This document shows, piece after piece, positions 1 to 43,599 of a DNA stretch of 64,000 bases. This DNA is from Raillietiella orientalis (taxonomy: Eukaryota), in contig JAYWIR010000074.1 of assembly GCA_036172245.1 (NCBI GenBank), forward strand, positions 186,001-250,000, in the 5' to 3' direction. The notes beneath the pieces were generated by a model. That model worked only from the letters and a program-made list of their open reading frames with translations. It was not told where the DNA came from and did no database searches. Position 1 is the first letter of the stretch. Every line of letters starts with the position of its first letter. The position numbers and the translations under genes are program-made.

Positions 1-415
1 CCTCGCCGGGATGTTTCAGAGGAATGGTAATGTTCCCTGTTACAATCCCATGGTGAGGACGACCATCGCCCTCTTCATCACCGCCATACTTGTGCGGTGG
101 TGGAAAATGAGGAAAGCCAGAAGAGCCGCACCACCGATGGAGATCCTACAAGGGCTCCTGAAGAGAGAAATCGAGATTAGAAACTGTGGGAAAATCCAAG
201 CCTGGACGTACCGATTCATCCTGAAGAGGATAAAAGACGACGCCCGGGACCAAACAGCAGGAAACCCACCATGGGTGCAGAACTTGTGAGAACCCAAGGA
301 CTTCGTAGTGGTAAAAAAAGTGCTAATGGTATGGATGAGATTGTAGTGTGAATGTTTTTATAGATAAATTTCAGAAAAATAAATTTACCCCACCCCTCGT
401 GGGACTCGGGGAAAA
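1..415 (+). mobile_element. 3' fragment of lineage C LINE (end of ORF2, 3'UTR, AATAAA-hairpin terminus)
   Basis: Closely similar to 38985-39401; ORF 11-289 matches the C-terminus of lineage C ORF2; ends AATAAATTTACCCCACCCCTCGTGGGACTCGGGGAAAA. Confidence 0.9.
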
Positions 416-1639
416 CTGCCGAGTCGGCGATGGGGCGACTGCATGCAGCGTGCTTTTGCTCGTCGCGACGCTGCTTTTTACGGCTTTCGTAGCCTTTGCA
501 GTGGAGCCTGCGCTACAGTGGGGCTGTCCGGAACTCGGAAGGGACAACGGAAAGGGGCAAGAAGTCTTCGCACTGTTGCGATCTTCCTGTTTTCCTACCT
601 TTCTCTCCAGGGTGTTACGGAGATTTCCTGGTTCCTGGCTCGGAGAGGTGCCTGCGAGTTTGGCAGAGAGGGAAGGCACTGCACGCGTCAAACGCTCGCA
701 CCCCTTTTTAATTTTCTTCCACGCCGTGACTTTCCCCTTTCGGGACGTTGCGGGCGGGGATGCTTTCCTTTCATCCACGGATCGCTCGTCGTTTTTTGCG
801 AGTTTTTGCGGACGACGTTTTTTATTTGCCGCTGCGGCTTTTCTTGCAGTGGTCTCTTGAACCCGACGAATTTCCGCTGCGGCTCTTTTTCTTGCAAGTC
901 CCGGGCACTTTTTGATTTCGTGCCCGGAATCTTTGCAATAGCGGCATCTTGGAGAGGGGCACTCTTTAATTCGCTGCCCCTCCTTGCCGCACTGCTCGCA
1001 CGCGCGAGTCTGGCCTATGAACCACAGGTGAACGACCGTGCCGTTCACCTGCAGCTTCTCAGGCACAACACGCCTGTTCGCGACGGTGATCCGTGCGGAG
1101 GCTTTTCCAATGTGGACATAGGGGAAATCCTTTAGAGGATTTGGCCTCCCCCACAGAGTGTGCACGGTGGCGAACTTCGCCTGCACACTTACGACATCGC
1201 GGTCGGAGATTTCAGGTTCGATGTCGCACAATTGAACGACAAAAGAGTCGTGCATCGCGGTAGGTAGGACTTCCTTGCCATTGATGGTTAACGGCGTACG
1301 GAGAAGGCGCTGCACAAGTGCTGCGTTCTTGCACCGAATCTTGGTATATTCCATCCTGCCAGCAGGCATTATGGCAAGAAGTTCCTTCTCGCGAACGCCT
1401 ATCCGTACGAGCTCATCATTGAGCTCACGACCTATTCTCCCGTTAAGTGGCACACTGACCTTATAACGGAGTGCAGGCATGTATGCTGATGACACATATG
1501 CCTGGAACTCCGCATCGCAGGGTCCTGGTCTTTTGGAGGTAACGGCGGCGTAACTCCTCACCGGGGGCGAGGAAACCATTACGGAGGATGCGGCCACTTC
1601 AAGTGCAGCTGAAGTGCATCCAGTGGCTTGCTCCTCCAC
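416..1639 (-). pseudogene. LINE ORF1 (nucleic-acid-binding protein with two zinc knuckles), truncated at SPTRQ
   Basis: ORF 371-1639 has CEQCGKEGQRIKEC and CRYCKDSGHEIKKC; the residues after SPTRQ are read from the antisense C terminus. Confidence 0.85.
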
Positions 1640-1778
1640 ACTATCCTGTGTACTGGCGATGTTGCACTATGCTACTTGTCAGATTGCACAGTTACACACA
1701 AGTGCGAGCAAAAACGCAGGCACAAAGTTGCCCGATCGTTGGCGCGGACAGACGCGGAAACACGTCTGCACTGTACGA
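416..1778 (-). mobile_element. 5' part of lineage A LINE (5'UTR + ORF1), cut by the C insertion
   Basis: Paralog of 39402-40762; GACGTGTTT motif at 1761-1766; joined to host APE sequence at ~1779. Confidence 0.9.
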
Positions 1779-2091
1779 GCGCAAGAGATCGAACGGATCT
1801 CCGGAGGGCGGCAATAGTACTGGTGTGGGAGAGCGAAAAGTTGCGCTGTCGCCTACCTGCTTCGGCCAGCCGTCGAGGCCGCGGCTCGGGGCGTGCAGTT
1901 CGACGATTACGGTCGTGTCGGCCAGCTGACTCTCAGGTGGTCCGACTCGATCGATCTGATCGTCAGGAACGTGTACGCACCGAGCGGCGCGGAGGATGTG
2001 GAAAGAGGTTTTTCTTGCTCCATCGCGACTGGCTGACCGAAGCAGGCGTGCGGAATGCTTATGTGGTTGCAGGCGATTTCAACGTTCGCCT
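1779..2091 (+). mobile_element. APE fragment of a lineage D host element (QEI...NVYAP...GDFN)
   Basis: Aligns with 45472-45801; resumes at 10426 after the B' insert. Confidence 0.85.
2076..2091 (+). repeat. 16-bp target-site duplication, left copy (ATTTCAACGTTCGCCT)
   Basis: Identical copy at 10426-10441. Confidence 0.9.
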
Positions 2092-2238
2092 TCATACGAG
2101 TCGGACGTGATTTCTTGTCGCTCCGTGGTTTCGCTGTTTGGTTGTGTTTGTGCATCCCACTGCACATCCCCAAGCAGTGAACAACGCAAAGTGTAAGACC
2201 TCGAGTCTGTAGTTCAGGAACTTTCTGCAGCTGGAGTG

Positions 2239-6400: not shown

Positions 6401-6700
6401 CGCCGAGCATTCTCCGTTCTTAAGGAAAACCGTTCTAACGGGTGATCGGACAGAGTGATCACTGTGTCTCGAAAACCCTGAATGCGCCGCAACATCCTTG
6501 AGCAGTTTTGCAAAAGCAGTCTTCACCTCGTTTTCGGAGAATTCCTCCTCCAGTCTATTCCGCTGGAGGTCGTCGGTCCTCTTCTCGAGATAGCTCAGAA
6601 AGGTTTGTGGACTAGAGCGACAGAGATGTTGTCGCCTGAAGTGTTTCGTGTAATGCCTGTGAAAGGCATCCACGATATCTTTAACGACTGTCGCTCTTGA
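3431..6700 (-). mobile_element. Lineage C LINE, 5'-truncated (end of APE, RT, 3' end), with an internal duplication
   Basis: GVRQGD, YADD, DMEKSFD in ORFs 4321-5265 and 5275-5631; C-type terminus at 3431-3467; ~6487-6700 repeats ~5845-6060. Confidence 0.88.
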
Positions 6701-10112: not shown

Positions 10113-10425
10113 TCCGCCCTCATTTTATTTTTGATTGTTTTTTTTGTTCTGGCGTCCTTTTTCCCATACGCTCCGCAGTTCTTTTGGAGCTAGAACTTTT
10201 GATTTTACCGTTGACTGCGGAGCAATCTCAAAGTTCCCTAGCCGACTCCTCCCATTTACAATTTTTTTTTTTTTTTGGACTCCCTTCAGTCGTCCATGTT
10301 CTTCCGTTTTCCTGGCCTGCATGACAGGGGTGAATCTCCGCTGCATGTTTTCCAAATGCATTGCTGGGAACAATTGTTTAAGGCACGTTTATGTCAATAA
10401 ACGTATCGACGTGACCGGGTGAAAA

Positions 10426-16155: not shown

Positions 16156-18266
16156 AGGCGCTGATGCGTGAGACGGGAGATGTTCCCGCTTCTTTCCGCT
16201 CAGCAAAGGTGCGGCTCCTCACGAGAGGCGAGGATTTGCGCCACCTCAGCAACTGGCCTCCGATCACCTTGGTTAATTGGGACGTCATGTTGTTCTCGAA
16301 GTTATGAGTCGCGAGGCTGGGGAGCGTCACAAAGTCCTTGGCACACGTATGCTGTTCCGTGGCGGTCCATGGACGCGAATGTCTACTTCGCGCGAACATG
16401 GTTCGAGTTGCAGCAGAGCGTTGCAAAGCAGAGTCACGCAGCCAAAATCGCCGCTTCCAAAGGTAAGCGGCGGTGTTCAAGGCACGATGCAGCGCCAGAA
16501 GCCTTCGCAGTCGCCGTAGATTTCTGCAAAGCGTTCGGCAGCGTAAACCAGGACCTCCTACTAAAGATTCTGGGACGCCTAGATTTCCCGACGCACCTCA
16601 TCGCCTACTTGCGCTCCTGCTGGCGCCACGCGTTATGCTGTATCTCTTCTAGCGGGCGCCACATGTACGGCGTTCCCATACGGCGGGGTATCGGGCAGGG
16701 AGACAGCTTAAGGCCCCTGCTCTTCAGCATCTTCTTTGAGTTTATGCTTAGGGCGTACAGGCTGATGCTGGCCAACCAGACGAGCTCCTTCTCGGGAACT
16801 CCGGCCGTGGCCGCATATGCTGACGACCTTCTCCTGTTGCTGCCCATGTCCCCCCTGGCGTCCAGGCTTGAAGACTTCTTCGAGCACATTCGTCGGAAGA
16901 CGGACGTAAGCCTCAACAGGAGCAAGCGCTCCGTTGTTCCGGTGAACGGAAAGCGAGTTACTGCTTTCGTTGCTGCCCCTCTTTCGGCACACCAGCATAG
17001 GGTTTGTCTCCCAGCTGAGGCAGCTGTCCTTACTGCTGGAAGCCCAATCTTGGATCTCCTGCCGCCCCATGAACATTAATGCATGGCGGCAGGAATCTTT
17101 TTCATCGTGGGCAGCTTCCAAAGGAACGCCTCTTCAAGATCTTGGACGCCTGCGACTTCTCCTTAGACATAAATAGGACGAAGTCATGCCGGACAAGAAG
17201 AAGTCGGATCGCCTGACCGCCACACCACTCGCCGCAGCGCTGTGTGCCCTCAGGGCAAGCAACGAAAATTGCCTACCTGCGAAATGGGAGTTCTTCTGCA
17301 CAATAGAGGGAGTAAGTAAGCTCCTTGGCGGCTTGAAGACAAAGGAGCTGGTGGAAACTGCCACTCTTCGTAATCGGCCGAAGGGCCTGCTTCGGTGGAG
17401 TGAACATTTTAGTGTAACCACCGAAGAGATAGTGGTTCCCCCCGTTTGTCTGGACAACTCCGTGTTTTGCTTAAAATGGGAACAAGATGTGCTGCTCTTT
17501 CTACACTGAGGCTTCCACTGTAATCAGCAGCGAGGCATCGTTTCCAGAGGAGCTGCTCTGCCAAACTGTTCGAGGTGCGGAGAGATCCTGTCTTTTCCGC
17601 ACCTCTCATTGGACTGCGGTGACCTCCGTGAACTGTGGCGGTGGCTGATTTCAGCCTTTTCGCCGCAGGGATACACTGTCAATGATGTGCTGCGGCGCCT
17701 CTTCAGGAGGAATGGATTTTCGGTAGGCGCGAATGTCGCAACCATGTGTTGCATTCGCGCCATCGTGAAGGCCCGCTACGCCCTGGAGGTGTCAGCGCAG
17801 CGAAGGGAGTCTCACCGGTTTGCAGCAGAATTGATGCAACAGGCTGCTAGGTGGCCTTATCTTCGTGACAAGGTCAAAAAGGACATCGACGCATCCATCG
17901 CCGGTTTACAGACTTCTAGGAACGGCTTAATCCGGTGATCACTTCGTCCTGGAGCTTACCCATACCCCTTCTCCGCTCGCTCTGCTAAACTGCCAGTGCG
18001 ATTACTTTTATCCAAGTGCGAACCATAGCGATCCCAAAGTCCCTTGTCCCGGCGTCCACCATTGATTCCTTTTTATGTTGTTTCTCTTTGTTTGTGTTTC
18101 TAGTTCCCCCACACCGTTCTGTGTTATTCTGACCTGCGTGCCAGCAATGTTCTATTGATGCTTGTTCCGTCGTCGGCTGGGTCCATGGGTTCCAGCTGGT
18201 TCATTTTATATAATTCTTTTTGTTTATATCATATGAAATAAACGCCCAGGCGTGACCGCGTGAAAA
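16156..18266 (+). mobile_element. Lineage A-type LINE (A'), 3' part (RT, zinc finger, 3' end)
   Basis: GIGQGD, AYADD; C-terminal region similar to 29824-31000; terminus at 18237-18266. Confidence 0.85.
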
Positions 18267-18278
18267 ATCTCTTGCGCT

Positions 18279-19638
18279 CACACAGGATAGACGTGTTTTT
18301 CCATCTCTCCGCATTCGCGATTAAGCAAATTTGTGCGTGCGCTTTTGGTCGCATTTGTGTGTTTATCATAAGTCGAACCAGCAGCGTTTTGCAGCATGCC
18401 CACTGCTCAGAATGGTGTTGAGTTGCAAGCCGTTGAATCCACTCCTACTGGTCTGGAAGCGGCTGCATCCTTCGTGACGGTTTCCTCGCATTCGGTAGAA
18501 ACCTACGCCGTTGTCTCCTTCCAGGAAGCAGGAAACTGCGATGCAGAGTTGCATGCTTATGTGGCATACGGCTACATGCCCGCACTCCGTTATAAGGTCA
18601 GTGGGCCCCTTAACGGGAGGACCGGGCGTGAGCTCAACGATGAGCTCGTCTGGATCGACGTTCGGGAGGAGGAGCTCCTTGCCATTATGCCTGCGGGCAG
18701 GATGAAATACACCAAGATACGGTATAAAAACGCGGCACTTGTGCAACGCCTTCTCCGTACTCCGCTGCCCATCGGTGAAGACAAGGTCCTGCCTTCAGGG
18801 ATAAACGACCCTTTCGTCGTCCAATTGTGCGACATCGAGCCAAAAATCTCCCACCGCGATGTCGTAAGTGTACTGGCAAAGTTCGCCACCGTGCACGCTC
18901 TGTAGAGGAGACCAAATCCTTTAAAGAATTTCACCTCTGTGCACATTGGAAAAGCCTCCGCACGTATCACCTTCGCGAGCAAACGTGTTGTGCCTAAGCA
19001 GGTGCAGAATAACGGCACGGCCGTTCACCTCTGGTTCATGGCAAGGATAGCGCATGCAAGCAATGCGGCAAGAAGGGAACCGAATGAACAAATGTTTAGC
19101 TCAGACATGCCGCTACTGCAAGGAAACCGGGCATGAAATCAAAAAGTGTTCGGTGCTTGCAAAGCAAAGGGCAACAGTGGAAGTTCGTCGCGTTCAAGAG
19201 ACCAACGCACGAAAAACAGCTGATTCCAAGAAAAAACAGTGTCTGCGGAGTCTTGGCAAAAGAGCCAAGCAATACGCCGCAAAACAACCGGCGTCCCCGC
19301 CCGCAACGCCCTGAGAAGGAGAAATCACGGCAAAAAAGCCAAGGAAAAAGAGGCAGGAGGGCCTCACGCATGCCGTACATGCTCTAGTTGTCGTACTGCG
19401 AAGCATCTCTCCAAACCAGGAACGGGAAGATTTGCGAAGACTCTCGATAGGAAAGGTAGGAGAGCAGGAAGATCGCCACACAGCGAAGACTTCCAGCTCC
19501 AACCCGCTATCAATTCCCTAATCGGCAAAGTCCCACTCGAACGCAGGGTCCCCTGCGGAGGCTACAAAACCCGTAGCAAGACTAGGCGCGCTGCGTAAAA
19601 GCACGCTGCAGGCAGCCTCCCCTTCACGGACTCGAAAA
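18279..19638 (+). mobile_element. Lineage A-type LINE (A''), 5'UTR + ORF1, cut by a C insertion
   Basis: GACGTGTTTTT at 18290; ORF 18396-18905 is homologous to A ORF1 (YMPALRYKVSGPLNGR). Confidence 0.85.
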
Positions 19639-27660: not shown

Positions 27661-29490
27661 TGACACGCTCTCCTTCACCAATGAAAGTGGGGGCATCCGC
27701 TCCCACGGAATCCGGGGCACTTGCCCTATCGGAATCGGGCGCAACCGCCCCCTCGCAAACCTCTTCGCCATTGGCGAGGAGTTGGAGTGACGTCGTTGCT
27801 GCACCATGCTTGGATGCAGTAGCGGAGCAGACTGCCTAAAAGGACAGCGGCTACAAGCCTTCTCTGACCTATAAGGTAGGCAGTGTGTTTGATGAAAAAA
27901 TTGCACGCTCCTTCGAAATGGAGCTGCAAAGGTTGAACGTGTGAGAGGAAGACCTTTTAGGCCTATCCGTCCTCAGTGGTGGCCAGCGAGTTGAGCTGAC
28001 ATGCAAAGAGGAGAGTCCGGCGCAGCGACTGCTGAACACCCCTCTTACGGTGGACGGCCGCAGGATCTTCCCTGTGACGGAGTACCGCTCAGTCGTGGTC
28101 CACCTCATGGGCGAATTACTCCGAATGGACAAAACTAGCGTCCATGATGAGTTATCGAAGCATAGTAGTCTGCACGCGTATTGGGCCAAACCCAATGTCT
28201 TCCGAACGTACGGAAGGCTATTCAGTGGAATGGCAGCAGTCCGCGTCACCCTACCAGAAAATGGTGGGCTTCCACACAAACTGAATATCGGCGAAGAAAT
28301 AGTCGATGTTTGGTACGTGGCTAAGCCCAAGTATTGTGGACATTGCAATGCAACAGGGCATCTAAAAAAGCGGTGCCCTAACATCCAATGCCACTTATGT
28401 GGAAATAAGGGCCACATCCGTAAGGTGTGCAAAAGAAGAGAAATATCGTCCCCATCCGCTGCCAAAAAGGCAAAGGGGAAACGCACGGGAGAGACGCATA
28501 AACAGAAACAGGCTGTAAACCCCCAGACGCCAGTCCCTATGCCCTCAAAGCAAACGTCGGTTGAGAACAATTCCGACGACGCTGGTGAGGGCGAAGGCTG
28601 GCAGACGGTACAGCCCAGAAGAAAGCCCAGGAGTCCCGAACGAAGCGCGGAAAAAACAAAAACGCAGCGCGAAAATCCGTGCCGCGAGAAAGTTCGCGAT
28701 TGGTCGGTAAAATTAGAGCGTGCGGAGGCACTCCATGCCTCCATCAGGGGAGCAATCTGCCCACTTGCGTCCGCCGAAGCCGCGACGGTCGATGACGAAT
28801 CTTCTGGGGAAACAGAGGGGGAACCGCGCGCCGCGCTCGACGCGATCGAAGGGCCGCCTTCCAGCAGGCGGTGGAAGAACTCGAGGCAGAACTGCAAGGC
28901 CGTGAGAAGAACTTCCGAAAAGGCTGACGAAGGCAGGCCGCGAGGAAGGTTCCGGATGCACGTGACGCCCAACCGGATGCCAGAATTGCGTCCTCATTAA
29001 CATAGGCGCTACCAAACAAGACAAGACGCGAGTCCCAGAATCCCAGAAGGCGCATAGGGATCAAGAAGGAGGAGCATCAACTGGCACCCGAGGGGGAAGC
29101 CGGCAACGTAAGAGCCGAGAGTAGGAATCTCATTTCTCGACACCGTGCAGCTGGCGACCCCCATGGAGGAGGATGTCCAGGTGGGTGAACCCCTACTTCC
29201 TCTACAAGGCCCCGACGACGACTCGTACTCCATGGAGGAAAGAGAAGCGATGCGCGGCGAACCCCCTCCTCTTAGCGTCCCGCCCGACAAGGTGGCGGGA
29301 GCCCCATTGCCAATTTCCCAGGATTAACACCTCGAATCGCCTGTTGATGTAGGATCCGCGTAACCTGCTGGAACGTCAACGGGCTGCGCGATGACGGCAA
29401 CAGGCGGGACACAGCCGACACCATGCGTGACTTCGACCTGGCACTCCTGCAGGAGATCCACGTGATAACCGCGGAGAACGACCAGAAGAT
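27661..29490 (+). mobile_element. Lineage E host, part 1 (ORF1 + start of APE)
   Basis: Knuckles CGHCNATGHLKKRC and CHLCGNKGHIRKVC in ORF 28050-29000; WNVNG...LQEIHVITAE up to 29490. Confidence 0.85.
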
Positions 29491-29823
29491 TTCTCACCCG
29501 GTCACACCAGGGCGTTTATTCCATATAACATAACCTAAAAAGCAATTATACAAAATAAACCAGTTAGGAAACAAACTCCCAACTGACGACTGAACAAGAA
29601 TGAAGAGATTATTACTGGCACGGAGGCCAGAGTAACAGTTTTGCGAACGGTGTGGGGGGGCGTGGAACACAACGAAACCAGATTAAAATAAAAACAATGA
29701 ATAAGGAGGACGGGATAAGGTACTTTGGGATCGCTCTGGAAGACACGGGGATAAAACCACGGGCACCGGAAATTTTACCGAGCGAACGGAAATGGGGTAT
29801 GGGTGGGCGAGAGGTCGCAGGGG

Positions 29824-32800
29824 TCACCGGATTACGCCGTTCTCCTAGGTGTGTAAACCGGTGATGCATGCCGGTGATGTCCTCATTTACCTTGTCACGA
29901 AGATGAGATCACCTTGAAGCCTTCTCCATGAATTGAGCCGCAAGCAAGCGAGCCTCCCTTCGCTGCGCTGACAACTCCAGGGCGTAGCGGGCCTTCAGGA
30001 TGGCGCGAACGCAACACATAATTGCGACAATCGCGCAAACCGAAAGTCCATTTCTACTGAAGAAGCGCCGCAGCACATCAATGGCAGTGCCTCCATGTAG
30101 CATGATGGCCGAAGTGAGCCTTTCCCACAGTTCCAGGAGGTCACTGCAGTACAGCAAAAGTTGCGGAAAATACTCGATCTCTCCGCACCTTAAACAGTTT
30201 GGCAGAGCAGCTCCCCCGGAAACGACGCTTCGCTGCCTATTACAGTGTAATGCACAATGTAAAAAGACCAGCACATCTTGTTTTCGCTTTACGGAGAACA
30301 CAGAGCTGTCCAAACAAACAGGGGTAACCACTATCTCTCCGGGGGGCACACTTGAATGATCGCTCCACCGAAGATGGCCCTTCGCCCGATTCCGAGGAGT
30401 GGCGGCTTGCACCAACTCCATTGTCGTCCAGTTGCCGAGGAGCTTAGTGACTTCCGCTATTTTGCAGTAGAACTCCTATTCCGCCAATAGGCAACCGTCG
30501 TAGCTTGCCCTGAGGGCAGACAGCGCTGCGGCGAGTAGTGTGGCGACCAGACGATCCGACAACTTCTTGTCCTGCATGACTACGTCCATTTGATGACTGA
30601 GGAGAAGTCGCAGGCGTCGAAGATCTTCCGGGCGCGTTCCTTCGAAAGCTGCCCACGATGAAAAAGATTCCTGCCGCCATGCATTCGTGTTAATGTCGCG
30701 GCAGGAGATCCAGCTTTGGGCTTCCAGCAGTGAGGAGAGCTGCCTCAGCGGGAAGCCAAACCCTATTCTGGTGTGCCGAAAGTGGGGTAGCAACGAAAGC
30801 AGTTCCTCGCATCCTGTGCAGCGCCTCAGTATAAGGCGTGCGGCTAAGCACCAAGGCGTGCACCACAGCCTCGCACAGAGCCGCAGCATGCGAAACTGCA
30901 CCTGCAGTTCGATGCTGTTTAAGTCGAGGATGCCCAAGCCTGCATCCTGACGCGGCGCCACCAAGTCTTCAAGTCTAACACGGGATCTTGCAGTGCCCCG
31001 CAACGCTTTGCGTAGAAGGCGCTGCGCCCAGACTTTGACTTCCACGGGGGGTGGACAAACAAAAAACAGGGGGCGGAAGAGGGGAACAACGAACGTTTTT
31101 CAGATGCAGGCCCGTTCCGGCAAGACGAACTTGCCTCCTGAAAACGGGCTAAGTGCACGCTCTGCCTTCCGAAGGCAATCCGACGACGCTTCTGAGATGC
31201 AGAAGTCGCCCAACGGCACGCCAAGGTACCTGAGGTACCTGCCCGTTGGCATCCCCTGGTCGATCCAGACGGATTTCTCCTCCCACGTTGCACCCACCGG
31301 AACAACCATACACATACTCCTGTTAACGTTCACGCAAGCACCGCGACGAATCAACTCGAAGAAGTCTTCAAGCGATGTCGCCGCTTTGGACATGGGCAAC
31401 AGGAGAAGCAGGTCGTCGGCATAGGCTGCCACGGCCGGCGTACCTGGACAGGAGCTCGGTAGGTTGGCTAGCGTCAGCCTGTAAGCCTCCAGCGCCAATT
31501 CAAAATAGATGCTGATAAGCAGCGAACTTAAGCTATCACCCTGCCATATTCCTCGTCGTAATGGCACGCCGTACACGCGACAGCCACTAAAAACAATGGA
31601 TGTAATCGCGAGGCGCCAGCAGGAGCGCAAGTACGCCCACAGGGATGCCGGTAGACCCAGACGTTCGAAAAGCTCCAGAAGAAGCTTTTGGTTCACGCAA
31701 TCGGAAGCTTCGTGCACATCGACTGCAACCAACAAGGCTCCCGGTGTCTCCCTTTGCGTCTCGCGCCTCCGTCGGTGAGAGATCGAAAGCGTCGCTTCCG
31801 CACGACGAACCACCGCCAGACTATTCTGCAATTGCAGCTATGTGCGGATGAACAAGAGATTCGCGTCCATTGACCTCCCGGGAACAGTGAACTTCTGCTC
31901 CGGACTTACCAAGGATTCCGCGATCCTACCCATCAGCGCCACCGAAAGTTTCGAGAATAGCTTGACATCCGAATTCACTAATGTGATCGGACGGCAGTTG
32001 TTCAGTTGGCGCAAATCACCGCCTTTCGTCTGTAGACGCACCTTGGCTAAGCGAAAGGAGGCGGAAACATCGCCCAAGTCTCGCATCAGCGACGAGAGTT
32101 GGAGCACCAGGGGGATGAGTTCCGCCGCAAAACGTTGAACGAATTCCGCGGGGAGCCCATCTTCCCCTGGCGCGTTTCGTCTCTTGAGCCACGAGATGGG
32201 CGAGGAAATTTCCTCTGCCGTGAAGGGCTCATCAAGACGCGCGCGTTCCTCCTCGTCTACAACAGGTGCATCAATCGGCAAAAGCTGCCGGGAGAGGCTG
32301 CGTTTCGTCGGTGCCTCTGCATACAGAGAAGAGTGAAAGCGCTTGACTATCCGTCGCACGTAGGCTGGAGCAGAGCATTCCAGTTCCTGGTCGTCGAGCA
32401 GAACTGTCGCCCCTGACTGCCAGACCTGGCGCTCGGACTTGGCCTTGTACTCGGAGAATCGACCAACGTCCGCGCGCCCTAAAAAGGAGCGGGCATGCAG
32501 AAAATCTCTGCTGTTGGCCACGCCCTCTTCGAAGCCGCGCGGAAGCTGTTGCAAGGGAAACCGGCAGCAGAACTCGCGGACCGATCTTTTCAGATCGTCC
32601 CAGTCCTCAAGCTCACTCATGGCAAAGCCGACAAGCTACTGGCGAAGATGCTTAGCAACCTCCGAGTGGCTTAGCCAGTCTGCCGGCATCCTCCAAAAAC
32701 AGTTTGGAGGCCCCTTGCCTGGCGGGAGCAATTCGAACTCGAGCCTGTTGTGGTCTGAAAGCACGGACGGCACGGGACCTCTCCGACCCACGCGACAGAG

Positions 32801-33416
32801 CAAGTGTTCATCAAGGTATACGTGGTCCGGCGTTGCTTCCATAGCAGGGTCGCTAGCGAACAAGTTGCACGGGTGCACGGACGCGCACATCTCTTTTGCT
32901 TGGAACTTTTCCCTTTTGTGTGATCTATTCTCGGAAAGCAGGTGGACGTTAAAGTCCCCCGCAATGAGATGAGCCACAGTAGGGTGAGATCGAGTGAACC
33001 ACTGGCTTTGAAGGGTACCGTATAAATCAATCCTTTCGGCCCATCGTCTCAGCACCGCTCGGCGCGTACACGTTGGTTACGACAAGGTCGATCGATTCGG
33101 ACCACTTGAGTACAAGCTGTCCCACTCGGCCTTCCGTGTCGAAACGAACGCTGCGCACCGCTCCCGCCAAAGTTCCTCGCACGAGGAAAGCGACGCCGCA
33201 CGTACTTGCAACGCCGCACCTATAAAGCAGGGTTCCGCCAGCGCTCCGTTCGATTTCGGCAGTCTGCTCTTCGGAGATGCTGTGAATCTCCTTCAGGAGC
33301 GTCAACTCGAAGGCGCGCAGAGCGTCAGCCACTAGTCGCCTTTTATCCTCGTGTTGGAGCCCGTTGACGTTTCAAGACGTTACGGCAACACGACGAGAAG
33401 ACGCGATTGCCCTCAT
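29824..33416 (-). pseudogene. Lineage A ORF2 (APE-RT-zinc finger), frameshifted
   Basis: NVYAP, AGDFN, LSDH, PGEDGLPAEF, GIWQGD, AYADD, CLRCG in successive ORFs. Confidence 0.88.
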
Positions 33417-34075
33417 CACGGCTGGGAAAGCGGGGCCGTGGTGCTCGCCTCACCCGGCGAGCGGACAGTAAGCAGCACGACGGGCTGGAGGGCGCGGTCC
33501 TCACCGGCCTAAACTGTGCTGCACGTAATCGGGTGCTCTTCCCCGGGTGCAGAACCTGTGGGTTCCGGGTTGAGCACTAGCCGTTCCGCGGCGAGTGTGT
33601 CACGACTCAGGGCTTCAGCCCTGCGGGCGCTCGCTCCCGCGCGAGTTACGCGTCGTTCAGCTGCGATATCGGACTCCTTTGCGGAGTCTGATGCTCGCAC
33701 GATCGACGTGCGCTTTCATCCGTCCAATTGCACCAGAATGGTCTTCTCGGCGGTCACAGAAGCAGACTTGCACGCGTTGAAGGCGCTGGCTTTTTCCTTG
33801 GAAGAGGCACAAGCCGCGCGTGTTTTCGTATTCCCGCGACTGCTTTTTCCTTTGGAAGAGCTCAGGGATGGATGTTGCGGAGCTATTTTCGGACATATTT
33901 CTTTCCTCCTTTCCACAACCTTCCATTCGCCTTCGCGATTCTCGGAGGTATCCGCGACAGTAGTTGCGGAAACCTCCGGGATTCTCGCTGAGTTCTCTGG
34001 GGGCGTTGCTTTCGCTACGCCTTTGAAAGGAGGCAATGCAGTCACCTTCTTGACAGTCGGGAGATTGCTCCTCTC

Positions 34076-34090
34076 CTGCCGAGTCGGTGA
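34076..34090 (+). repeat. 15-bp TSD, left copy (CTGCCGAGTCGGTGA)
   Basis: Right copy CTGCCGAGTCGGCGA at 39402-39416, one C/T mismatch. Confidence 0.88.
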
Positions 34091-34299
34091 ACTTTTTTCG
34101 CGGCTCAAAGTATTGTGCGCTCGACAATTTAATCAGTTAATTGTGCTCGTGTGTGCCCGGAGAGTGGAAGTTTTCCAGACGAAACTACAAAAGAAGCGGC
34201 GAGGAGAACGCGGCAAAAGACCTGCAGTGGTCCCGTGCAGCAAGACCAGCTGCCAGGATGCAGGCACATAGAGGAGGAGTGGAGAAACCGTCGTCCCCC

Positions 34300-35991
34300 A
34301 TGGAAGCCATGGAGGTAACGTGCGGCAACGGCGAGGCGGTGGCAGGCATGCCGAGGATCGCGCCCGTGGCGGGCTTTGCTGCGCCTGCGGCGGCGATGGC
34401 AAGAGTAGTGCCCGCGGCGGGGAAGGTCGCGCCTGAGGCGGCGATGCCGAGGGTGCCTCCCGCGGCGGCAACGGTGGCGACGTCGAGAGTTGCGCTCGCA
34501 GCGGCTGCGTCCCAGGCAGGACGCGCGGGCGTCCACGCGGTCCAGAGCGAGACACCATCTTGTTCGGCTGCGGCGGCGTAGCCCTTTTCCTATGCGTCGG
34601 TGGCGGCTGGACAAGCGAGTGTCCACCCACCAAGAAAATTTGGGAAGCCGCTATGCGGTAAAGTCCAAAAGGTGTATCGGCCGATCGTGGAGTTAGGGCC
34701 GAATGTGAAGCCCATCATTTTCAAGACTGGGCTCATCAAGTTCAATAATATCAGGGAGGTTTATCTGTCCCTCGATAAAATGGACATGAATTTTGATCGC
34801 ATACAGGCAATCATACCAGCAAACAACGGGTTAACAGTCTTCACAGACTCTGAAAAGATTAGAGAGCGACTGATCCAGAAGGGGATCAATATACAAGGGA
34901 GGATGTTTTGTGGTGTTGGCAAGATGCCATACACAACCGTGTTTCTGATCGGCATCTCCATCCTCACACCGGAACTAACGGTTTAGAACTTTTTGGTGCA
35001 GTATGGGGAAGTTCTGGACCTTGAATTCTAGAACTTCTCTGAAAATATATTATGTATCGAAATGATCGCCAAAACGAAGTTGAAAGAGGGAGCTGTGTTC
35101 CCTGGATTAGCCGTTCTTGACGAACAATCCCAAAGAGTGAACGTGCGTTACCGGCAACAACCGATATTCTGCACCGGGTGCAAGCAGTTTGGCCACATGG
35201 CCGACGCTTGCCCAACGTGTCGTTGTTTCCGCTGCGGCAAAGTAGGACATCAAGTCCAAAACTGTCCGCAGCCGGAGGTGAGCTCCTTCTGCAAGAAACA
35301 CGGACATGCCAAATGGAGCTGTCCGGAGTTTGCAAACTGCAGAAGGATTCGAGGTCTCTCTCCCGTGAGAGAGAGAAACACCAAGGAGGCGGAACAGCCT
35401 CAGAAGGCAGGAAGGCCGAAGAAGGTGAAAGAAGTTGTCCCGGTATCGGAAGACGGCTTCATACAGGTTGGGAAGAAAGGAAAGAGGAGGATGCTCGTCA
35501 AGGAGCAAAAAACCCCACTTATCCTACAAAGTGAAAAGCAAGAAGGCGAGAAGATGGAGGTAGCGCAGGAAGGCGCGAAAGAGGAAATAGCCGAAGCCAC
35601 TTCGGTGTCGCAGGAGGCCCTGCAATCTACGGAGGAGTTGGCATCACTGGCTAATGAAGTCCTAGAGTTGCAGAGCGGTCCCCAGCAAGAGAAAATCTTG
35701 CAGAAGATCTGCAATGCACGGGAGAAGGTCAACAAGGTTGTGAAGGTCACCGAGCACGAAAAGCTAGAGGAACAGCTTCTGGACGTAAAGGCGAACTTTT
35801 GCGCCAAGTTCCAGATAGAGACGCTATCTCGAAAACTAATCGCGCGGGCTGAACACTGGACGGCGGAGGCGGAAGTAACCGATTTCCCCGGAACAGAGAG
35901 TGACGCCGGCAGCGAGGAGCCCGCTGCTACTTCATTGTCTGGAAGAGCACGCTCTCTCAGACATAAGAAGCTCAGGAAGGGCAAGAAATAG
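34300..35991 (+). pseudogene. C ORF1: Ala-rich repeats, three zinc knuckles; contains stops
   Basis: CTGCKQFGHMADAC, CFRCGKVGHQVQNC, SSFCKKHGHAKWSC in ORF 35062-35991; start approximate. Confidence 0.8.
34345..34505 (+). repeat. Degenerate 48-bp (16-aa) coding tandem repeat, ~3 units
   Basis: ATGCCGAGG / ATGGCAAGA / ATGCCGAGG at 34348, 34396, 34444. Confidence 0.7.
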
Positions 35992-36004
35992 GACTTCTCC
36001 TTTC

Positions 36005-39000
36005 ATGACCTCTCCCCTATTGACCGCCAGGAGGCTGCAAATAGCCTCCTGGAATGCAAACGGTATGGTCGACCAAGGAATAAGAAAAAGGATTGTGCGG
36101 ACCATCGCACAACAAGACATAGTGTGCCTGCAGGAGACCCACAAGATGGGTCTCGAGATTATTCAGGAAATGGAACGGCGATTCAACGGGCAGAATTTCG
36201 TCAGCGAGGGAGAACGGAACACGCAAGGTGTGGCGGTGCTAATCAAGAACAACTTGACCCCAACTATTCTGGAAGTGTTCTGTTCCTATCCCGCACGAAT
36301 CATCGGCGTGCGACTGGCCTGATCCGCTACTGTTCATCTCATCCTGGTAAACGTGTACGGGCCGCACAGGCTAAAACATCGTTGTGCGCAGGCGCTGCAT
36401 GCAGCACTCCGTGAAAAGGTTCCTTTCCAAGGACGTCGTGATTGTTGCTGGCGATCTCAACATCTTGGATGAGATCACTCACTCCGAAGACGCCAGAGGA
36501 AGGACGGCGTATCAGCGGTTATCCGACGAGTTCAAACTGGTGTGGCGAACTGCAAGTCACAAGCCGATCGATCACGTCCTGCACAACACCGAACTTGGTA
36601 ACCGCATCCAGGGTTTTCGAGACATTATGACCACGGTGCCCGATCACCCCCTAGTGCGGTTTTTTCTAAGAACGGAGAATCCTCGGCGGAGGCAAGGTAC
36701 CAGGGCGGCGCTCATCAGCATGCTTGCCTGGTTCGAAACCCATCCCGGAAATCAAGCTGTCCTGGAGACGATTCTGAAGGCAACAACAATCCGAAGAGTC
36801 GCCGACTGGGACAGCCTGAAACACAGGATACACCTGTTTGTAAAGATGCAGTTTGGAGATAGGCTCTTGAGGCAGGAGGCGTACCGGGAGCTGAACATCC
36901 AAGATCGCTCACTCTCAAAGTACTTCGATCAGCACGAGAGTGGGTACGTCTTCAAGAACATCAAAGGGGAAGTCGGCGTTCTGAAGAAAAGAAATCTGGC
37001 AACAGATATCTTCTGCATCCAGTACGACGGCCAAAGGCGCCAGTCGTCTGAGGACATGGTGGATGCCTTTCAAAGGCATTACACGAAACACTTTAGGCGA
37101 CAACATCTTTGTCGCTCTAGTCAACAGGCCTCGAGAAGAGGACCGACGATCTCCAGCGGAACAGACTGGAGGAGGATTTCTCCGAAGACGAGGTGAAGAC
37201 TGCGTTTGGTCAAGTACGCAAGGACGTGGCAGCGGGCCCTGACAGCGTACTCTTCACTCACTATCAGCGGAAATTGCATGCCTACCTGCGTTTATTCCAC
37301 CAGTTGACCCTCTGCATCCGCGAAGAAGGAAGACTTCCACAGTCGTTCTACGAGAGTCGGATGAGATTGTTGCCGAAAGGAGGCGACTCCACCCAGATCG
37401 CCCAATGGAGGCCAATCTCGATCCTAAACTCCGATGCCAAGTGGTTGGCGAAGATCTGGTCCAACCGCTTAGGCAAGGTCATGTCGAGGCTGATCTCTCC
37501 GGTCCAGACATGTGCAGTCCCTGAACTTCACATGTCGGACAATGTCAAGTGTGCCCAGGCCACCGTCAGACTCAGCCGATATGTCGACGAGAACCTTGCG
37601 CTGGTGTTCACTGACATGGAGAACGCTTTCCACTGCATCGACCATGGGATGTTGCTTAAGGTTCTAAAAAGCTAGGCCTTCCGGAACACTTCAGCAACTT
37701 CGTGAGGGTGGTACTCCAGAACCAGTATTGCCGAATCAAAATCAACGGCCAGGAGACGGTTGCAATTCGGATGGAACGGGGAGTCCGGCAGGGCGATTCG
37801 CTAAGTCCGATGCTGTTCGTCATCCACATGGAGGCGTTGTCGTCCTTTATCGAGAAGAGCGGACGACTGCAATTCATAACAATCGATGGCCAGCGTCTTA
37901 CCCATCTAGCATGCGCTGATGATCTACTCTTCTTTACCCAGGGAGAGAGAAATCAACGAGCGTTTCTGGATGTGGTAGACGTGATGGATCAAGGCCTGGG
38001 TCTAAAGATCAACGCCCAGAAAAGCCAGCTCTTGCCCGTTGGAATCTTCGATCTCTCCACAATAGCGGAAAGAGGATCCCGAACGGTGGACAAGGTTAAG
38101 TACCTGGGTGTCTACATTGGCGACCTCTCCGCGTCGAAGCTATTGTGGACCGAGATCCTAGGGAAAACGGCCAAGGAAGCAGCCAAGTACACCCGAGCGG
38201 ACCTTGGAATGAAGCTAAAGGCCAACATATGAAACGGAGTACTCCTTCCAAAAGTGCTCTTCGGGGCGGCCTTCGCGAGGATAAACAAGGAAACCACGAG
38301 GGAGTTCGACAAGCTGCAGAGAAAAACACTGTGGGGCAACTATCGCCCAAGAGTCCGACTAAAACCCCTGTGTCGTCCCAGGGGAGAACGCGGTTCCGGG
38401 ATGAAGTCGCTTGTACACTCCATAGAAATCATGGATACGCGACACATCCTGGACATTGCCACTCACTGGGAAGACGGTGCAGAGTTACCCTTCAACGAAT
38501 CCAGGACTGGTAACGAGGAGGGCACCTACATCACACTCGTATACTTAGGTATATAGAGATGATGTTAGGAAGGTTTACCCACATGACTCGCGAAGTGTGG
38601 TTCAATCACAACGACTTTGCATGCTCCAGGGTAACCAAAACAAACCTCCGAAGTCTAATTCAAGAAGAACACAGTGATATTAGTGCCCTCCAGGAAGCCG
38701 CCGGTCGCTACGGGAGTGACCGGATCAACCTGTTAGCGATTGGCACGACGCTCTGGAGGAGTGACCTTCCGCCGGGCACCCAGGATGACCTCCTGATGTT
38801 TTATCATGGAGGAATCTAGAGTGGGTCCCGATTGCAGCACTACACCGGAAGAAGGGAGGATCGAGAGTGCACAGCATGTGGAGACATCGACATGTGACTT
38901 CACGTCTTGACGTTTCCCACATTGCTGCATGACTGGCTGATCCTGAAAAGGATCATCGGACTCTCCACCAGGTCCGTAATGGAGATCCTCGCCGAAATGT

Positions 39001-39275
39001 TTCAGGGGGATGGTAATGTTCCCTGTTACAATCCCATGGTGAGGACGACCATCGCACTCTTCATCACCGCCATACTTGTGTGGTGGTTGAAAATGAGGAA
39101 AGCCAGAAGAGCCGCATCACCGATGGAGATTCCACAAGGGCTCCTAAAGAGGGAAATCGGCATGAGAAACTGTGGGAAAATTCAAGCCTGGACGTACCGA
39201 TTCATCCTGAAGTGGATAGAAGACGACGCCCGGGACCAAACAGCAGGAAACCCACCATGAGTGCAGAACTTGTGA
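36005..39275 (+). pseudogene. C ORF2 (APE-RT), frameshifted
   Basis: SWNANG, CLQETH, NVYGP, GDLN, IDH, WRPISILNSDAK, GVRQGD, ACADD, KYLG. Confidence 0.9.
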
Positions 39276-39401
39276 GTACCCAAGGACTTCATAGTGGTAA
39301 AAAAAGTGCTAATGGTCTGGATGAGATTGTAGTGTGAATGTTTTTATAGAAAAATTTTAGAAAAATAAATTTACCCTACCCCTCGTGGGACTTGGGGAAA
39401 A

Positions 39402-39416
39402 CTGCCGAGTCGGCGA
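39402..39416 (+). repeat. 15-bp TSD, right copy
   Basis: Pairs with 34076-34090. Confidence 0.88.
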
Positions 39417-40762
39417 TAGGGCGACTGCATGCAGCGTGCTTTTGCTCGTCGCGACGCTGCTTTTTACAGCTTTGGTAGCCTTTGCAGAGGGGCCTGCGCT
39501 GCAGTGGGGCTTTCCGGAACTCGGAGGTGACAAAGGAACGGGGCAAGAAGTCTTCCCACTGTTGCGATCTTCCTGTTTTCCTACTTTTCCCTCCAGGGTG
39601 TTACGGAGATTCCCTGGTTCCTGGCTCGGAGAGGTGCATGCGAGTTCGGCAGAGAGGGAAGGCACGGCACGCGTCAAACCCTCGCGCCCCTTTTTAATTG
39701 GCTTCCCCGCCGTGACTTCCCCCTTTCGGGGCGCTGGGGGCATGGATGCTTTCTTTTCATCCGCGGATCGCTCGTGGATTTTTGCGAGTTTTTGCGGACG
39801 ACGTTTTTTATTTTCCGCTGCGGCTTTTCGTGCAGTGGTATCTTGAACCCGACGAATTTCCGCTGCAAGTCTTTTTCTTGCAAGTACCGGGCATTTCTTG
39901 AATTCGTGCCCGGTATGTTTGCAATAGCGGCATCTTGGAGAGGGGCACTCTTTCATTCGGTGTCTATCCTTGCCGCACTGCTCGCACGCGCGAGTCTGGC
40001 CTATGAGCCACAAGTGAACGACCGAGCCGTTCACCTGCAGCTGCTCAGGCACAACACGCCTGTTCGCAAATGTGATCCGCGCGGAGGCTTGTCCAATGTG
40101 GACAGAGGGGAAATCCTTTAGAGGATTTGGCCTCTTCTACAGAGCGTGCACGGTGGCGAACTTCGCCAGCACACTTACGACATCGCGGTCGGAGATTTCC
40201 GGTTCTATGTCGGACAATTAAACGACAAAAGAGACGTGCATCGCGGTAGGTAGGACTTCGTTTCCATTGATGGTCAACGGCGTACGGAGAAGGCGCTGCA
40301 CAAGTGCTGCGTTCTTGCACCGAATCTTGTATATTCCATCCTGCCAGCAGGCATTATGGCAAGGAGTTCCTCCTCGCGAACGCCTATCCGGACGAGCTCA
40401 TCATTGAGCTCACGACCGATTCTCCCGTTAAGTTGCTCACTGACCTTATAACGGAATGCAGGCATGTATCCTGATGACACATATGCCTGGAACTTCGCAT
40501 CGCAGGGTCCTGGTCTTTGGGAGGTAACGGCGGCGTAACTCCTCACCGTGGGCGAGGAAGCCATTACGGAGGATGCGGTCACTTCAAGTGCAGCTGAAGT
40601 GCATCCAGTGGCTTGCTCCTCCACTCTATCCTGTGTACTGGCCATGTTGCACTATGCTACTTGTCAGATAGCACAGGAACACACAAGTGCTAGGGAAAAC
40701 GCAGGCACAAAGTTGCCCGATCGTTGGCGCGGATAGACGCGGAAACACGTTTGCACTGTACG

Positions 40763-41492
40763 AGCGCAGGATATCGAGAAAATCGCAGGGTGTCGTTTGT
40801 TTTGGCAATGCGGCTCTCGCAACACCTGTGAAGTCGCGTTTTTTATGAAGCCAGCAGTCGCTTCCATCGTCAAAAACGTACGATTCGACAGGGACAGTCA
40901 TGTTGGCCAGCTTATCCTCAGGTGGTCCGACTAGCTCGATTTTGTCTTGCCTAATGTGTACGCTCGGAGAGGAGGACGCGGGTACGGACAACGTTCCCGT
41001 TTCCTCGAAAGCCTGAAGCGCGACTGGCCGGCGGATACAAACGTACGCAAGGCACATCTGATCGGAAAGGATTTCCACATCCGCCTGCTCTCAGGTGTGC
41101 CTTGCAGGCAAAAAGACGCAAGCAATGAGTTGTGCGCCGCTATGCGTACGCGCAACTAGCTAAGGGACCTACCGGAAATGGCTCAACGCGTAGACCGCGT
41201 CTTGCTTCACGCCGACCTGTGCTCAAGGGTTGGCAGACGAGGGAAACTTCCGTCGACGCCATCGGACCACTTTCGGTTGTTAATCGAGATTATGCCACGC
41301 GACCAAGGGCCACGATCCAGGGCGTGGCGCATGCCAGGGGACTAAACGCGCATCTTCGGTGCGGCGGAACATCCCGTCAGTTCTTGAGAGGCGTCAACCT
41401 CCGCAACCTCAAAGACTGGGACGGCATGAAGGTCTCGGTCCGCGACTTCTGCGAGGATTTCCCTTTGTACTGCCTGCCCAGGGAATTTGCAG
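40763..41492 (+). mobile_element. Lineage E host, part 2 (rest of APE up to the PRGFG-equivalent linker)
   Basis: Picks up where 29490 stops; collinear with 63050-63773. Confidence 0.85.
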
Positions 41493-43599
41493 TTGCCACT
41501 CGGGTACGCCCGGGGCGTTTATTAATAAAAAAACCTTTACAATCGCGGTACCAGGCCCCGCTCACGCCCTTATACACGGAACCTACCGGGAGGCCGGGAC
41601 GCAGCCCGGCGTGGCACTCACCGGCAGCAAAATGGGATGGGGAAAAACAAAAGTATAAATAAAAACGCTAACAAACAAAAGTGTTTGGAAGGCAGGGAAG
41701 GGATCACTGTTCGCTGAGAGGAGGGCCCATACGTTGAAGGAAGTCATCGAGATCCATCCGTATGTTCCCCAGTTGGGGCCATCCAGCAGCTCTTCGCCAG
41801 AAGCGTTGGGCATATGGGATGATATCCCTCGCGCGTTGACCCACTCCTTCCTTGTTGGTTTCGCTTCATGCCGCCACGATGCATCGGAGGCAGCACAAGG
41901 CTGCGATGGCTGTTTCTGGCTTCAAGGCGTGCTTCACGAAGAGGGGCCGAAGAACGTCTCTAGGGGAACTGCCCGTAGGGAGACCGAGAGTCGTCTCAAA
42001 CCGTTCCCAAAGAAGACGAAGGGCAGCACAGTGCACAATAAGGGGAGCGATTCCCGCTCTCCGCACCTGACACACGCAAGATCCACAACTCTTCTTGTCC
42101 AGTGGCAGCATCGTGCGTTGCAGGGTAAACCCCAATGCAGCAACAGCGACGCCGACTCTCTCGACTTAAGGGGAAGGATCCTGGACTCCTGAAGAAGCGG
42201 GGGCCACTTCAGCACATCCATAGAGATATCCAGCAGCTCGCCCCATCTTCTTAGTTTTCGCGGCTAGACGCTCGGGGTCGTGGCGTCCGCCAGTTGACCC
42301 ATGGTCCAGCCGCTCATTCTTTTCTCCCGTCCCTCGATGCAGCAGGAGACTTGCCACCTTGGCGTCCGACTGCTGTCAAAAGCCCTTCTCAGGAAGGGCA
42401 GCGTCGTAGCTAGGAATGTTGTCTCTGCCCACGTGCTTCTAGCTGGATTCTCCAGGAGATTCCTCAGAGTGCAGCGGGCGTAGGGGCCGCATCGGAGACG
42501 ATTCCACGTTTCGTGGCTTCTCTGGTTCACCAGAGCCCACGTTCCGATGTTCTCCTCCAGCCAGGCGGAGGAGTTGGCGGGGCAGCAAACCATCCAGCTG
42601 TTCTCCATGGCCAACGATGCCATGCGCCCGAGCTGTAAACCACATCCTCTGATCTTCCGGACGGAGCACAGAAGAAAAGACGCAAGTCCCTCGCACCGGG
42701 ACACACGACTGGCGATGAGGCGAGCCGGAATGGACCAGGGGGTGCTCCACATCTTTGCTGCTATGGCCAGGGTACGCCATCGCAGCTATTTCTACACGTG
42801 CTCCAACGTCAGGCGGCTTAGTCCGCCGTCACGATGGGGAGCGCACAGGTCCTTCAAGGGGAGTCAGGGCCTCCCCTTGGCCCAAAGAGCGATGGGAAGG
42901 AAATCCTTCATCCTCTTTTTAACAACTCCTAGGGCGGGGCAAACAAAAAGCAAGGGGCGGAGGATGGAGGCTGCAAAAACGTTCCAAACCAAGGCTCGCT
43001 CCGGCAAGCAAAATTCGACTCCCAGGTACGGGCCGATCGCCGTTTCGACTTTTTGTAGGCAGCTGGACCACGCTTCCGCAGGGGACAAGTCCTTCAACGG
43101 CACACCAAGGTATTTGATGCAGCTCGCCGTGGGGATCCCCAAACGGACACATTCCTGCTGCCAAGCCCACGCCGCACCGACTGGCAGCACCGACAACTTC
43201 GTCTTGTTCACCTGCAGTCCGGTCCCGCGGCTGAGCAGGTCGAAGAAATCTCCGACCGCCTTCTCCGGGGTGTACATAGATTACAGGAGCAGAAGATCGT
43301 CGGCATAAACACTTACGGCGGGCGTGCCGGGGCACGAGCTCGGCAAGGGGGCCAAAGTCACCCTGTACGCTCTCAGCACCAACTCAAAGTAGGTGCTGAA
43401 GAGCAGGGGACTCAGGCTATCTCCCTGCCTGATGCCCCGCCGCACCGGCACGCCATGCACCTTCTGACTGCTGAAAGAGACGGAAATTATCGCATGGCGC
43501 CAGCAGGAGCGCAGCTAGTTGATCAAGGAGGGTGGGAAGCCCATACGACCCAGGAGCTCCAAGAGGAGTTCCTGGACTACACAGTCGATCGCCTTGTGC

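Follow-up and report, generated by a model that had tools for sequence, protein, structure and literature searches.

Antisense insertion of one LINE lineage at the same base of the endonuclease-coding sequence of two sibling LINE lineages

How does one transposon come to lie backwards at the same codons of two different host transposons: was it inserted there twice, or inserted once and then copied? The question is raised by a stretch of 64,000 nucleotides of contig JAYWIR010000074.1 from Raillietiella orientalis (assembly GCA_036172245.1, positions 186,001 to 250,000), hereafter the window, in which positions are counted from the first base. A tblastn map found open reading frames (ORFs) of long interspersed nuclear elements (LINEs) on both strands along the whole 64 kb, the ruler for this map being the best-preserved element, X (approximately 49593-55500, minus strand). 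The original prediction was that one lineage, A, had inserted antisense at the 'QEI' codons of the apurinic/apyrimidinic endonuclease (APE) domain of two rival LINEs, D and E, in independent targeted events. Judged from sequence, A is very probably a target-sequence-specific APE-type LINE of the L1-like superfamily which lands in the endonuclease-coding sequence of sibling LINE lineages. The nesting reconstructed in the window is A in E, a further lineage N in A, and an element X2 in D. The interrupted hosts are termed D-int and E-int, and their uninterrupted relatives in the window D-ref and E-ref.

The predicted junctions, namely the A 5′ ends in the D host (1779) and the E host (40763) and the A 3′ end at 29491, are all present in the sequence. 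The last base of A copy 1 (1778) joins GCGCAAGAGAT|CGAACGG of D-int. In E-int, the first base of A copy 2 comes after GACCAGAAGAT (the longer left flank reads ...GAGAACGACCAGAAGAT), whilst its last base joins GCGCAGGATAT|CGAGAAA, the right flank written out being GCGCAGGATAT|CGAGAAAATC. The codons at the D junction translate to LLQEIHVISAEQ-AQEI-ERISGGR, and those at the E junction to LLQEIHVITAEN-DQKI on the left and AQDI-EKIAGCR on the right. Both junctions fall on residues 63-66 of the X APE. The codon position is thus shared and the orientation antisense, as had been predicted; however, the motif is the second Q-E-I, 9-12 codons past the catalytic LLQEIH, and not the catalytic one. On the host sense strand the site reads 5′-(G)NNCARRAGAT, insert, CGA-3′ (codons A-Q-E-I of D and D-Q-K-I of E), and A is antisense in 2/2 identifiable hosts.

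The inserts are far more alike than the sequences into which they are inserted. The two A copies are ~93% identical as a whole pair (1-1778 against 29491-40763, minus strand), and self-BLASTN aligned 1-1792 with 38987-40777 at 93%. In contrast, global alignment of D-int and E-int beyond the junctions gave an identity of 61% over 302 nt. Each host has an uninterrupted relative of its own, with D-int 90% identical to D-ref and E-int 81.5% identical to E-ref. By self-BLASTN, the flank of copy 1 (1765-2091) matched 45461-45801 at 85%, the left flank of copy 2 (27760-29489) matched 61330-63055 at 87.6% and its right flank (40776-41723) matched 63058-64000 at 80%. Moreover, excision of either 29491-40774 or 29480-40763 restores host E, which then aligns to E-ref gap-free and in frame (INDEPENDENCE). 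Removal of 29491-40762, the interval originally proposed, leaves 11-12 surplus bases; the redundancy at the junctions is therefore 11 nt, and not 8 or 12. The target-site duplication (TSD) had been described as degenerate and of ambiguous length (8-12 bp), and of this the degeneracy holds (7/11) whilst the length is now settled.

We read the copies as two separate A events at one position and in one orientation, because a duplicated block or a converted tract cannot make flanks that switch lineage at the first base outside. This agrees with the independent targeted events of the original prediction. As is expected of a target-specific LINE, insertion was at the same nucleotide, here the homologous base of two hosts that are 61% alike. 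The chance that a second insertion of a ~5.6-kb element falls on the homologous base in the same orientation is ~1 in 11,000 by arithmetic estimate.

The E frame does resume across an 11-kb insert, as was predicted, but that insert is a composite of A (~5.6 kb) and a nested N (~33.7-39.4 kb), with A proper extending from 29491 to ~33695 and again over 39402-40763. Between the copies, the A part is 92.9% identical over 1345 nt and the N part 93.8% over 418 nt (global alignments). A single A::N composite that moved as a unit is the probable ancestor of both copies, whose A and N parts are equally diverged. A encodes both an APE-type endonuclease and a reverse transcriptase (RT), as determined by tblastn to X: identity is 65-71% for the APE (E 1e-163), 58% for the RT and 48% for ORF1 (residues 7-331, copy 1). 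The A RT also matches RVT_1 (PF00078). In copy 2, the 3′ untranslated region (UTR) contains an AATAAA motif and a hairpin (29494-29520), and the copy is dead, with at least five in-frame stops and one frameshift.

Support from outside the window comes from X1, the only public sequencing run with related sequence (DNA, Logan contigs, 0.11 of sampled words); the sequencing-run search listed no RNA run with related sequence. X1 contigs were compared with 29000-41500 at 85% likeness and were read as summaries. One contig joins 29482 to 40767, skipping 11,284 nt, and represents an uninterrupted E-type site. Two others match the A 3′ end from 29487 onward and are preceded by a different flank, the consensus of which (agreement 0.7) is ...ACCGCGGCACAACAAGCGAAAG (...ACC GCG GCA CAA CAA GCG ...), an APE-type I-T-A-A-Q-Q-A. 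A contig over the first 860 nt of A stops at 40761, the 5′ end of the element.

Table 1. Positions, strands and main features of the A and A-like copies, of N and of the host sites in the window.
Feature	Positions	Strand	Remarks
N, 3′ part inside A copy 1	1..415	+	Ends AATAAATTTACCCC...GGGGAAAA at 415; 93.8% to 38987-39404; same junction in copy 2
A copy 1, 5′ part	416..1778	-	Short leader and N-terminal half of ORF1; remainder beyond window start
11-mer GCGCAAGAGAT at A copy 1 5′ junction, host D-int	1779..1789	+	Identical to unoccupied D-ref site
Host D-int, APE residues ~63-172	1779..2091	+	90% to D-ref; second interruption by X2 at GDFN codons
A′ (A-like sublineage, 79% to A)	16940..18266	+	C-terminal half of RT and 3′ UTR; ends AATAAACGCCCAGGCGTGACCGCGTGAAAA
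ATCTCTTGCGC at A′-A″ junction	18267..18277	+	Exact reverse complement of D-type 11-mer
A″ (A-like, ~75-77% to A)	18278..19638	+	5′ part, then antisense N at same ORF1 site
Host E-int left part, ORF1 and APE residues 6-66	27760..29490	+	3′ end is the 11-mer GACCAGAAGAT, 29480-29490
A copy 2, 3′ part	29491..33695	-	3′ UTR, RT, APE, ORF1 C-terminus; right limit ~+/-10 nt
N in A copy 2	33696..39401 (left limit approximate)	+	Antisense in ORF1 of A; CCHC ORF1, APE, RT; 24-29% amino acid identity to X
A copy 2, 5′ part	39402..40763	-	N-terminal half of ORF1 and leader with conserved GACGTGTTT-like motif
11-mer GCGCAGGATAT at A copy 2 5′ junction, E-int	40764..40774	+	7/11 to E left copy, 9/11 to D-type site
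Host E-int right part, APE residues 67-313	40775..41503	+	In frame with left part
Unoccupied D-type target in D-ref	45473..45490	+	GCGCAAGAGAT^CGAACGG
Unoccupied homologous position in E-ref	63046..63063	+	GCCCTGGAGAA^GGAGAGG; without AGAT^CGA core

Is the 11-nt redundancy a TSD, or a piece of target sequence that A brings with it? The left and right copies in E-int differ at 4 of the 11 positions; had a perfect duplication decayed as far as the A copies have diverged (7.1%), at least four mismatches would have a probability of 0.006. Three of the four differences are transversions; in the X1 comparison, transitions dominate the variation. E and the D-type site differ at four positions, and at three of these the right copy agrees with the D type (P ~0.006 under random substitution). 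On these counts the pair is too degenerate for a decayed perfect TSD. X2 (2092-10425) served as a control. It lies in D-int between identical 16-bp TSDs, ATTTCAACGTTCGCCT (2076-2091 and 10426-10441), both of which are identical to D-ref, indicating that real TSDs of comparable age can stay perfect. Between the TSD and the conserved 5′ end of X2 are 5 nt (TCATA), which resemble a degenerate version of the TTCAAT at the X and X-like 5′ ends.

A D-type 11-mer is also found away from any host. At the head-to-tail junction of two A-like elements, the 3′ end of A′ (...GTGAAAA) is followed by ATCTCTTGCGC and then by the 5′ end of A″ (TCACACAGG...), with no host sequence on either side and with the 11-mer in the same relative orientation as in the two hosts. 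In host orientation, the 11-mer at the A 5′ end reads GCGCARGAKAT. That these 11 nt are a carried copy of the preferred D-type target, and not a true TSD, is a reading to which we give about even weight, and which we rate above that of a degenerate TSD. The main alternative is gene conversion from another A copy, which would yield the same mosaic 11-mer. Upstream of A′ lies an X-like RT half, the junction being at RT residues 218/395. The stretch 16159-18266 is a mosaic, in which the N-terminal half of the RT is nearer X (72.7%) and the C-terminal half and 3′ UTR are nearer A (79%); RT residues 218-395 are missing from it, and it may be a template-switch chimera or the product of a deletion between two elements.

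The rival explanations differ in how much targeting they grant to A. The two occupied sites have only CARRAGAT^CGA in common, the upstream positions of D and E agreeing at 7/11, and two or three events are visible in the window. A could thus have a short preference of ~8 bp (RAGAT^CGA) for a motif that is conserved at the APE site in a LINE-only neighbourhood, with no dedicated targeting of LINE genes. The motif is not rare: there are 14 intact RAGATCGA sites in the window, 3 of which are at the APE position (D-int rebuilt, F26k and D-ref), with the E-int site split by the insert. The longer CARRAGATCGA occurs twice, both times as the D-type site. However, 0/11 RAGATCGA sites outside the APE position carry A, whereas an APE context surrounds 4/4 A junctions at which the flank could be read (D-int, E-int and the two X1 contigs), for which arithmetic from the site counts gives (4/15)^4, or ~0.005. 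Moreover, the catalytic LLQEIH codons carry the near-identical 9-mer CAGGAGATC (catalytic site CAGGAGATCCAC), followed by CAC/CAT, and A was found there in 0/8 APE copies covering it (X, M, that of A itself, F26k, D-ref, E-ref, H55k and E-int). We therefore think a purely short preference improbable. At the insertion site itself, X, A and M read GAAAT^(C/T) as opposed to GAGAT^C, which might protect them, although the numbers are too small to say. The D, E, F26k and H55k sites have GAGAT, AAGAT or TAGAT ahead of the ^CGA, and those of X, A and M read GAAAT^CGA/TCA.

A single ancestral insertion, copied to the second host by segmental duplication, ectopic recombination or gene conversion, is a second and much less probable account. 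The A and N parts are as equally diverged (92.9% and 93.8%) as they would be in one copied composite, and the window has been rearranged elsewhere (a 250-bp deletion at 38475, an N duplicate at 6485-6703 and the chimeric A′). Yet identity between the flanks is down to 61% immediately outside the 11-mer, where each flank resembles its own lineage instead (90% and 81.5%), which rules out a duplicated block; conversion across such flanks with base-exact ends is unlikely, and in the X1 contigs other flanks are joined to this A 3′ end. The least credible account of all is that two random insertions, among dozens of junctions, coincided by chance. With ~30 junctions, ~435 pairs at ~1 in 11,000 each would give ~0.04 expected exact coincidences (arithmetic), but the window holds other base-exact recurrences: X-type elements at GDFN (three 5′ ends and two 3′ ends), N at one ORF1 site (4 copies, at least three lineages), 3′ or 5′ ends at KAFD and LPxGFG codons, and a tandem that carries the D-type 11-mer.

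Several points weigh against targeting by A. The sample is small, comprising two hosts, one tandem and two external contig ends. Two hosts are identifiable in the window, and the 3′ junction of copy 1 lies beyond it. The perfect D-ref site (45473-45490) carries no A. The X1 flanks are a 30-nt consensus of two contigs, at an agreement of 0.7 and from contigs read as summaries. The two APE halves of A, taken alone, gave no Pfam match. Both A copies are dead and have N in ORF1, and so may have been mobilised in trans. The carried 11-mer is drawn from one informative junction and one tandem, and the host of the A′-A″ tandem cannot be assigned. Finally, with so few events, a shorter recognition motif, RAGAT^CGA, would also serve, improbable as we think it.

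If A is target-specific, its insertion can be set out along the established scheme of target-primed reverse transcription (TPRT). The A endonuclease would nick the host sense strand after ...AGAT, and the 3′ OH at the nick would prime reverse transcription at the A 3′ end (AATAAA, short GC hairpin, GTGA(N)AA). The other end of the A cDNA would be joined to ...CGA. The 11-nt mimic of the target could travel either as the 5′ terminus of A or as a leader transcribed from the donor flank, and the cDNA end bearing it would anneal to the cut target and so make the 5′ junction exact. Where the host is only near-cognate, as E is, the outcome would be a mosaic 11-mer. The mimic would also rebuild an intact target (11-mer and CGA...) beside the A 5′ end, inviting the next insertion, and thus head-to-tail arrays such as A′-A″ would result.

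A broader reading is that of a guild, in which every LINE lineage has evolved an endonuclease with a long recognition site of its own in a conserved coding motif of its siblings, together with a 5′ target mimic, and islands grow by repeated hits. This we put forward tentatively, as slightly short of an even chance. Its sites would be AQEI of the APE for A (antisense), GDFN for X (sense), LPxGFG and KAFD of the RT for others, and ORF1 for N. The islands would grow into head-to-tail arrays and Russian-doll nests, with host genes spared and rivals knocked out.

N is a second site-specialist: in four elements, drawn from at least three lineages, its 3′ end abuts the homologous stretch of ORF1. The junctions are at 415/416 in A copy 1, 39401/39402 in A copy 2, ~3430 in X2 and ~19639 in A″. 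N belongs to a divergent clade (Table 1). N stretches are found at 1-415, 33696-39401, 3430-6486 and 19639-22900, antisense in four A/X-type elements, and the flanking duplication of N in A copy 2 also looks degenerate. Position 38475 was considered as the A/N boundary and rejected, since it is a 250-bp deletion in copy 2, the missing segment of which is present in other copies and in X1 contigs; the true N 3′ end is 39401 (415 in copy 1).

The 3′ ends of A, A′, X, Y and X2 have a common form, AATAAAC..CCNGGNGTGACCGGGTGA(N)AA with a short GC hairpin and the target directly after, and no poly(A) or A-rich tail was found at any of the five. These near-identical ends lie at 18237-18263, 29494-29520, 49596-49622, 61289-61315 and 10398-10425, in lineages with ORFs only 65-80% alike. 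The shared form comprises AATAAAC, a CCNGG/CCGGG hairpin and GTGA(N)AA, for which the analogue in N is a CCCC/GGGG hairpin. This 3′ end is probably the element recognised by the RT. A GGACGTGTTT-type motif is kept at the 5′ ends of A copy 1, A copy 2, A″, X, X-like, X2, D-ref and M. Only A′ may be 5′-truncated, and the elements do not form an array of mostly truncated copies. The flanks of the elements differ by lineage.

Further landing sites were observed in the window. X-type elements lie in sense orientation at the G-D-F-N codons of the APE, where three 5′ ends and two 3′ ends were counted: the junction of X with host H55k is at GGAGATTTCAA (49586-49592), X and X-like (96% alike) are head to tail with ATTTCAA the sole sequence between them (~55500), and X2 is in D-int at the GDFN codons (2076-2096 and 10426-10441). 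The K/G-A-F-D codons of the RT are broken three times (~12290, 43595-43600 and 10553). The 3′ end of element K abuts the RT G-A-F-D codons of M at GCATTCGAT, the 5′ end of D-ref abuts H-K-A-I-D-C-V of a minus-strand host, and D-int jumps from APE S-I-D-H directly to R-K-D-F-D-C-V. The APE-RT linker LPxGFG is another landing zone (41503-41535 and ~27640-27700), where Hm, in antisense, has its 3′ end against the LPxG(F)G linker codons of E-int, and where the 5′ end of E-int, in sense orientation, comes directly after LPTGFGESARNKR of F26k. Near 57.8-58.4 kb, a short antisense insert is enclosed by a direct repeat of 283 bp (90%; 57527-57809 and 58124-58404). At 48081-48112, D-ref breaks off at RT residue 434 against X-like ORF1 residue 533 on the opposite strand. 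Neither side of this joint is an element end, and we take it to be a rearrangement and not a simple insertion.

A third candidate for the A site, at 6699, where ORF2 resumes at APE residue 68, was rejected, as a single X-type element, flanked by a perfect 16-bp TSD, spans 2092-10425. The break misses the A site by 3-6 nt and lies beside a duplicated 220-nt N fragment (6485-6703, a copy of 5842-6061 at 88%), next to which ORF2 of X2 resumes. It is read as an internal deletion or rearrangement.

The G+C content of the window is ~55%, and the only Pfam matches are RVT_1, Exo_endo_phos, zf-CCHC and zf-RVT. With X as the query (ORF1 669 amino acids, APE part 446, RT part 706), the tblastn map yielded ~60 fragments from at least eight lineages, at 24-100% amino acid identity to X. 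The X APE matches Pfam Exo_endo_phos (PF03372) at 3.6e-13. In a comparison with the PDB, the closest solved proteins by sequence were human L1 ORF2p and the L1 endonuclease, including its loop-swap variants LR1 and LTX, whilst the match to the R2 structure was confined to the RT core. A search of 5.8 billion proteins with the X RT returned 7 matches, a single one of which was close (a JGI protein, 56% identity), and the protein atlas gave only generic RVT/zf-RVT clusters. Scans for the conserved 3′ motif returned 0 matches in metagenome_contigs (two scans) and 0 in genome_contigs (one scan).

How does this locus compare with known systems? Among target-specific LINEs, the known targets are rRNA and snRNA genes, telomeres, microsatellites and a few DNA or long terminal repeat (LTR) transposons. 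R1 and R2, like A, enter a conserved sequence that is present in many copies, exactly to the base and always in one orientation. However, their target is a host RNA gene, whereas that of A is a transposon gene, and because A is antisense to it, A cannot be co-transcribed with its target. Zepp, another LINE, is described with a poly(A) tail, in contrast to the GTGA(N)AA that follows the hairpin at the A 3′ end, and green algae have Zepp-like clusters that are candidate centromeres. The LINEs of the window are not the sequenced Zepp of strain C-169, because the only close protein relative found for them is 56% identical.

In the passages available, Zepp (Coccomyxa subellipsoidea C-169) and ZeppL, which are L1 elements, are nested into their own copies and form LINE-only clusters in green algae, and Craig et al. 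describe Zepp as one family nesting into itself, with arrays of 5′-truncated 3′ ends (PMC3446292, PMC8226300). As far as those passages go, the window resembles them in having LINE-only islands built by nested insertion and head-to-tail arrays. It differs in that the same passages hold neither a fixed nucleotide in a coding motif nor a set of lineages with different sites.

A close parallel is the Tx1 group, LINEs which, according to the sections available, target transposons at preferred positions and in a fixed orientation (PMC4494074). The targets given there are the piggyBac Tx1D for Tx1, Mariner-N4_AMi for Tx1-Mar and a Harbinger for Tx1-9_AMi, with LTR retrotransposons for Tx1-8_Crp and Tx1-4_AMi (PMC4494074). 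In the same sections, some Tx1 families, or partners that are short interspersed nuclear elements (SINEs), have 5′ extensions derived from the target of the master copy, and target sequence in the RNA is thought to strengthen the exact integration of R1/R2 (PMC4494074, citing Eickbush 2000 and Fujimoto 2004). On this partial account, A is like the Tx1 group in being an APE-type LINE that uses another transposon as a landing site, at a preferred position and in a fixed orientation. Unlike the Tx1 group, A lands in the coding sequences of sibling LINEs from its own superfamily; moreover, it is base-exact in two lineages that are 61% alike, and several sibling lineages with sites of their own share the locus. 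In the full-text literature as far as available, with the original Zepp paper and supplements outside its scope, no description was found of sibling LINE lineages that each insert at an exact site of their own in conserved coding motifs of the others. What appears to be new here, on sequence grounds, is the use of a conserved protein-coding motif of competing LINEs as a landing site, entered backwards and at one exact base.

Should the pattern hold genome-wide, it would be a clean example of transposons targeting other transposons, in which a safe haven goes together with the inactivation of rivals, and would offer an explanation for how LINE-only islands build themselves. It would also provide a natural panel of related APE endonucleases with different long recognition sequences, from which the encoding of APE specificity could be learnt and tools for site-specific insertion designed. 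The poorly understood joining of the 5′ end in TPRT would find a simple solution in the 5′ target mimic, should the mimic be real.

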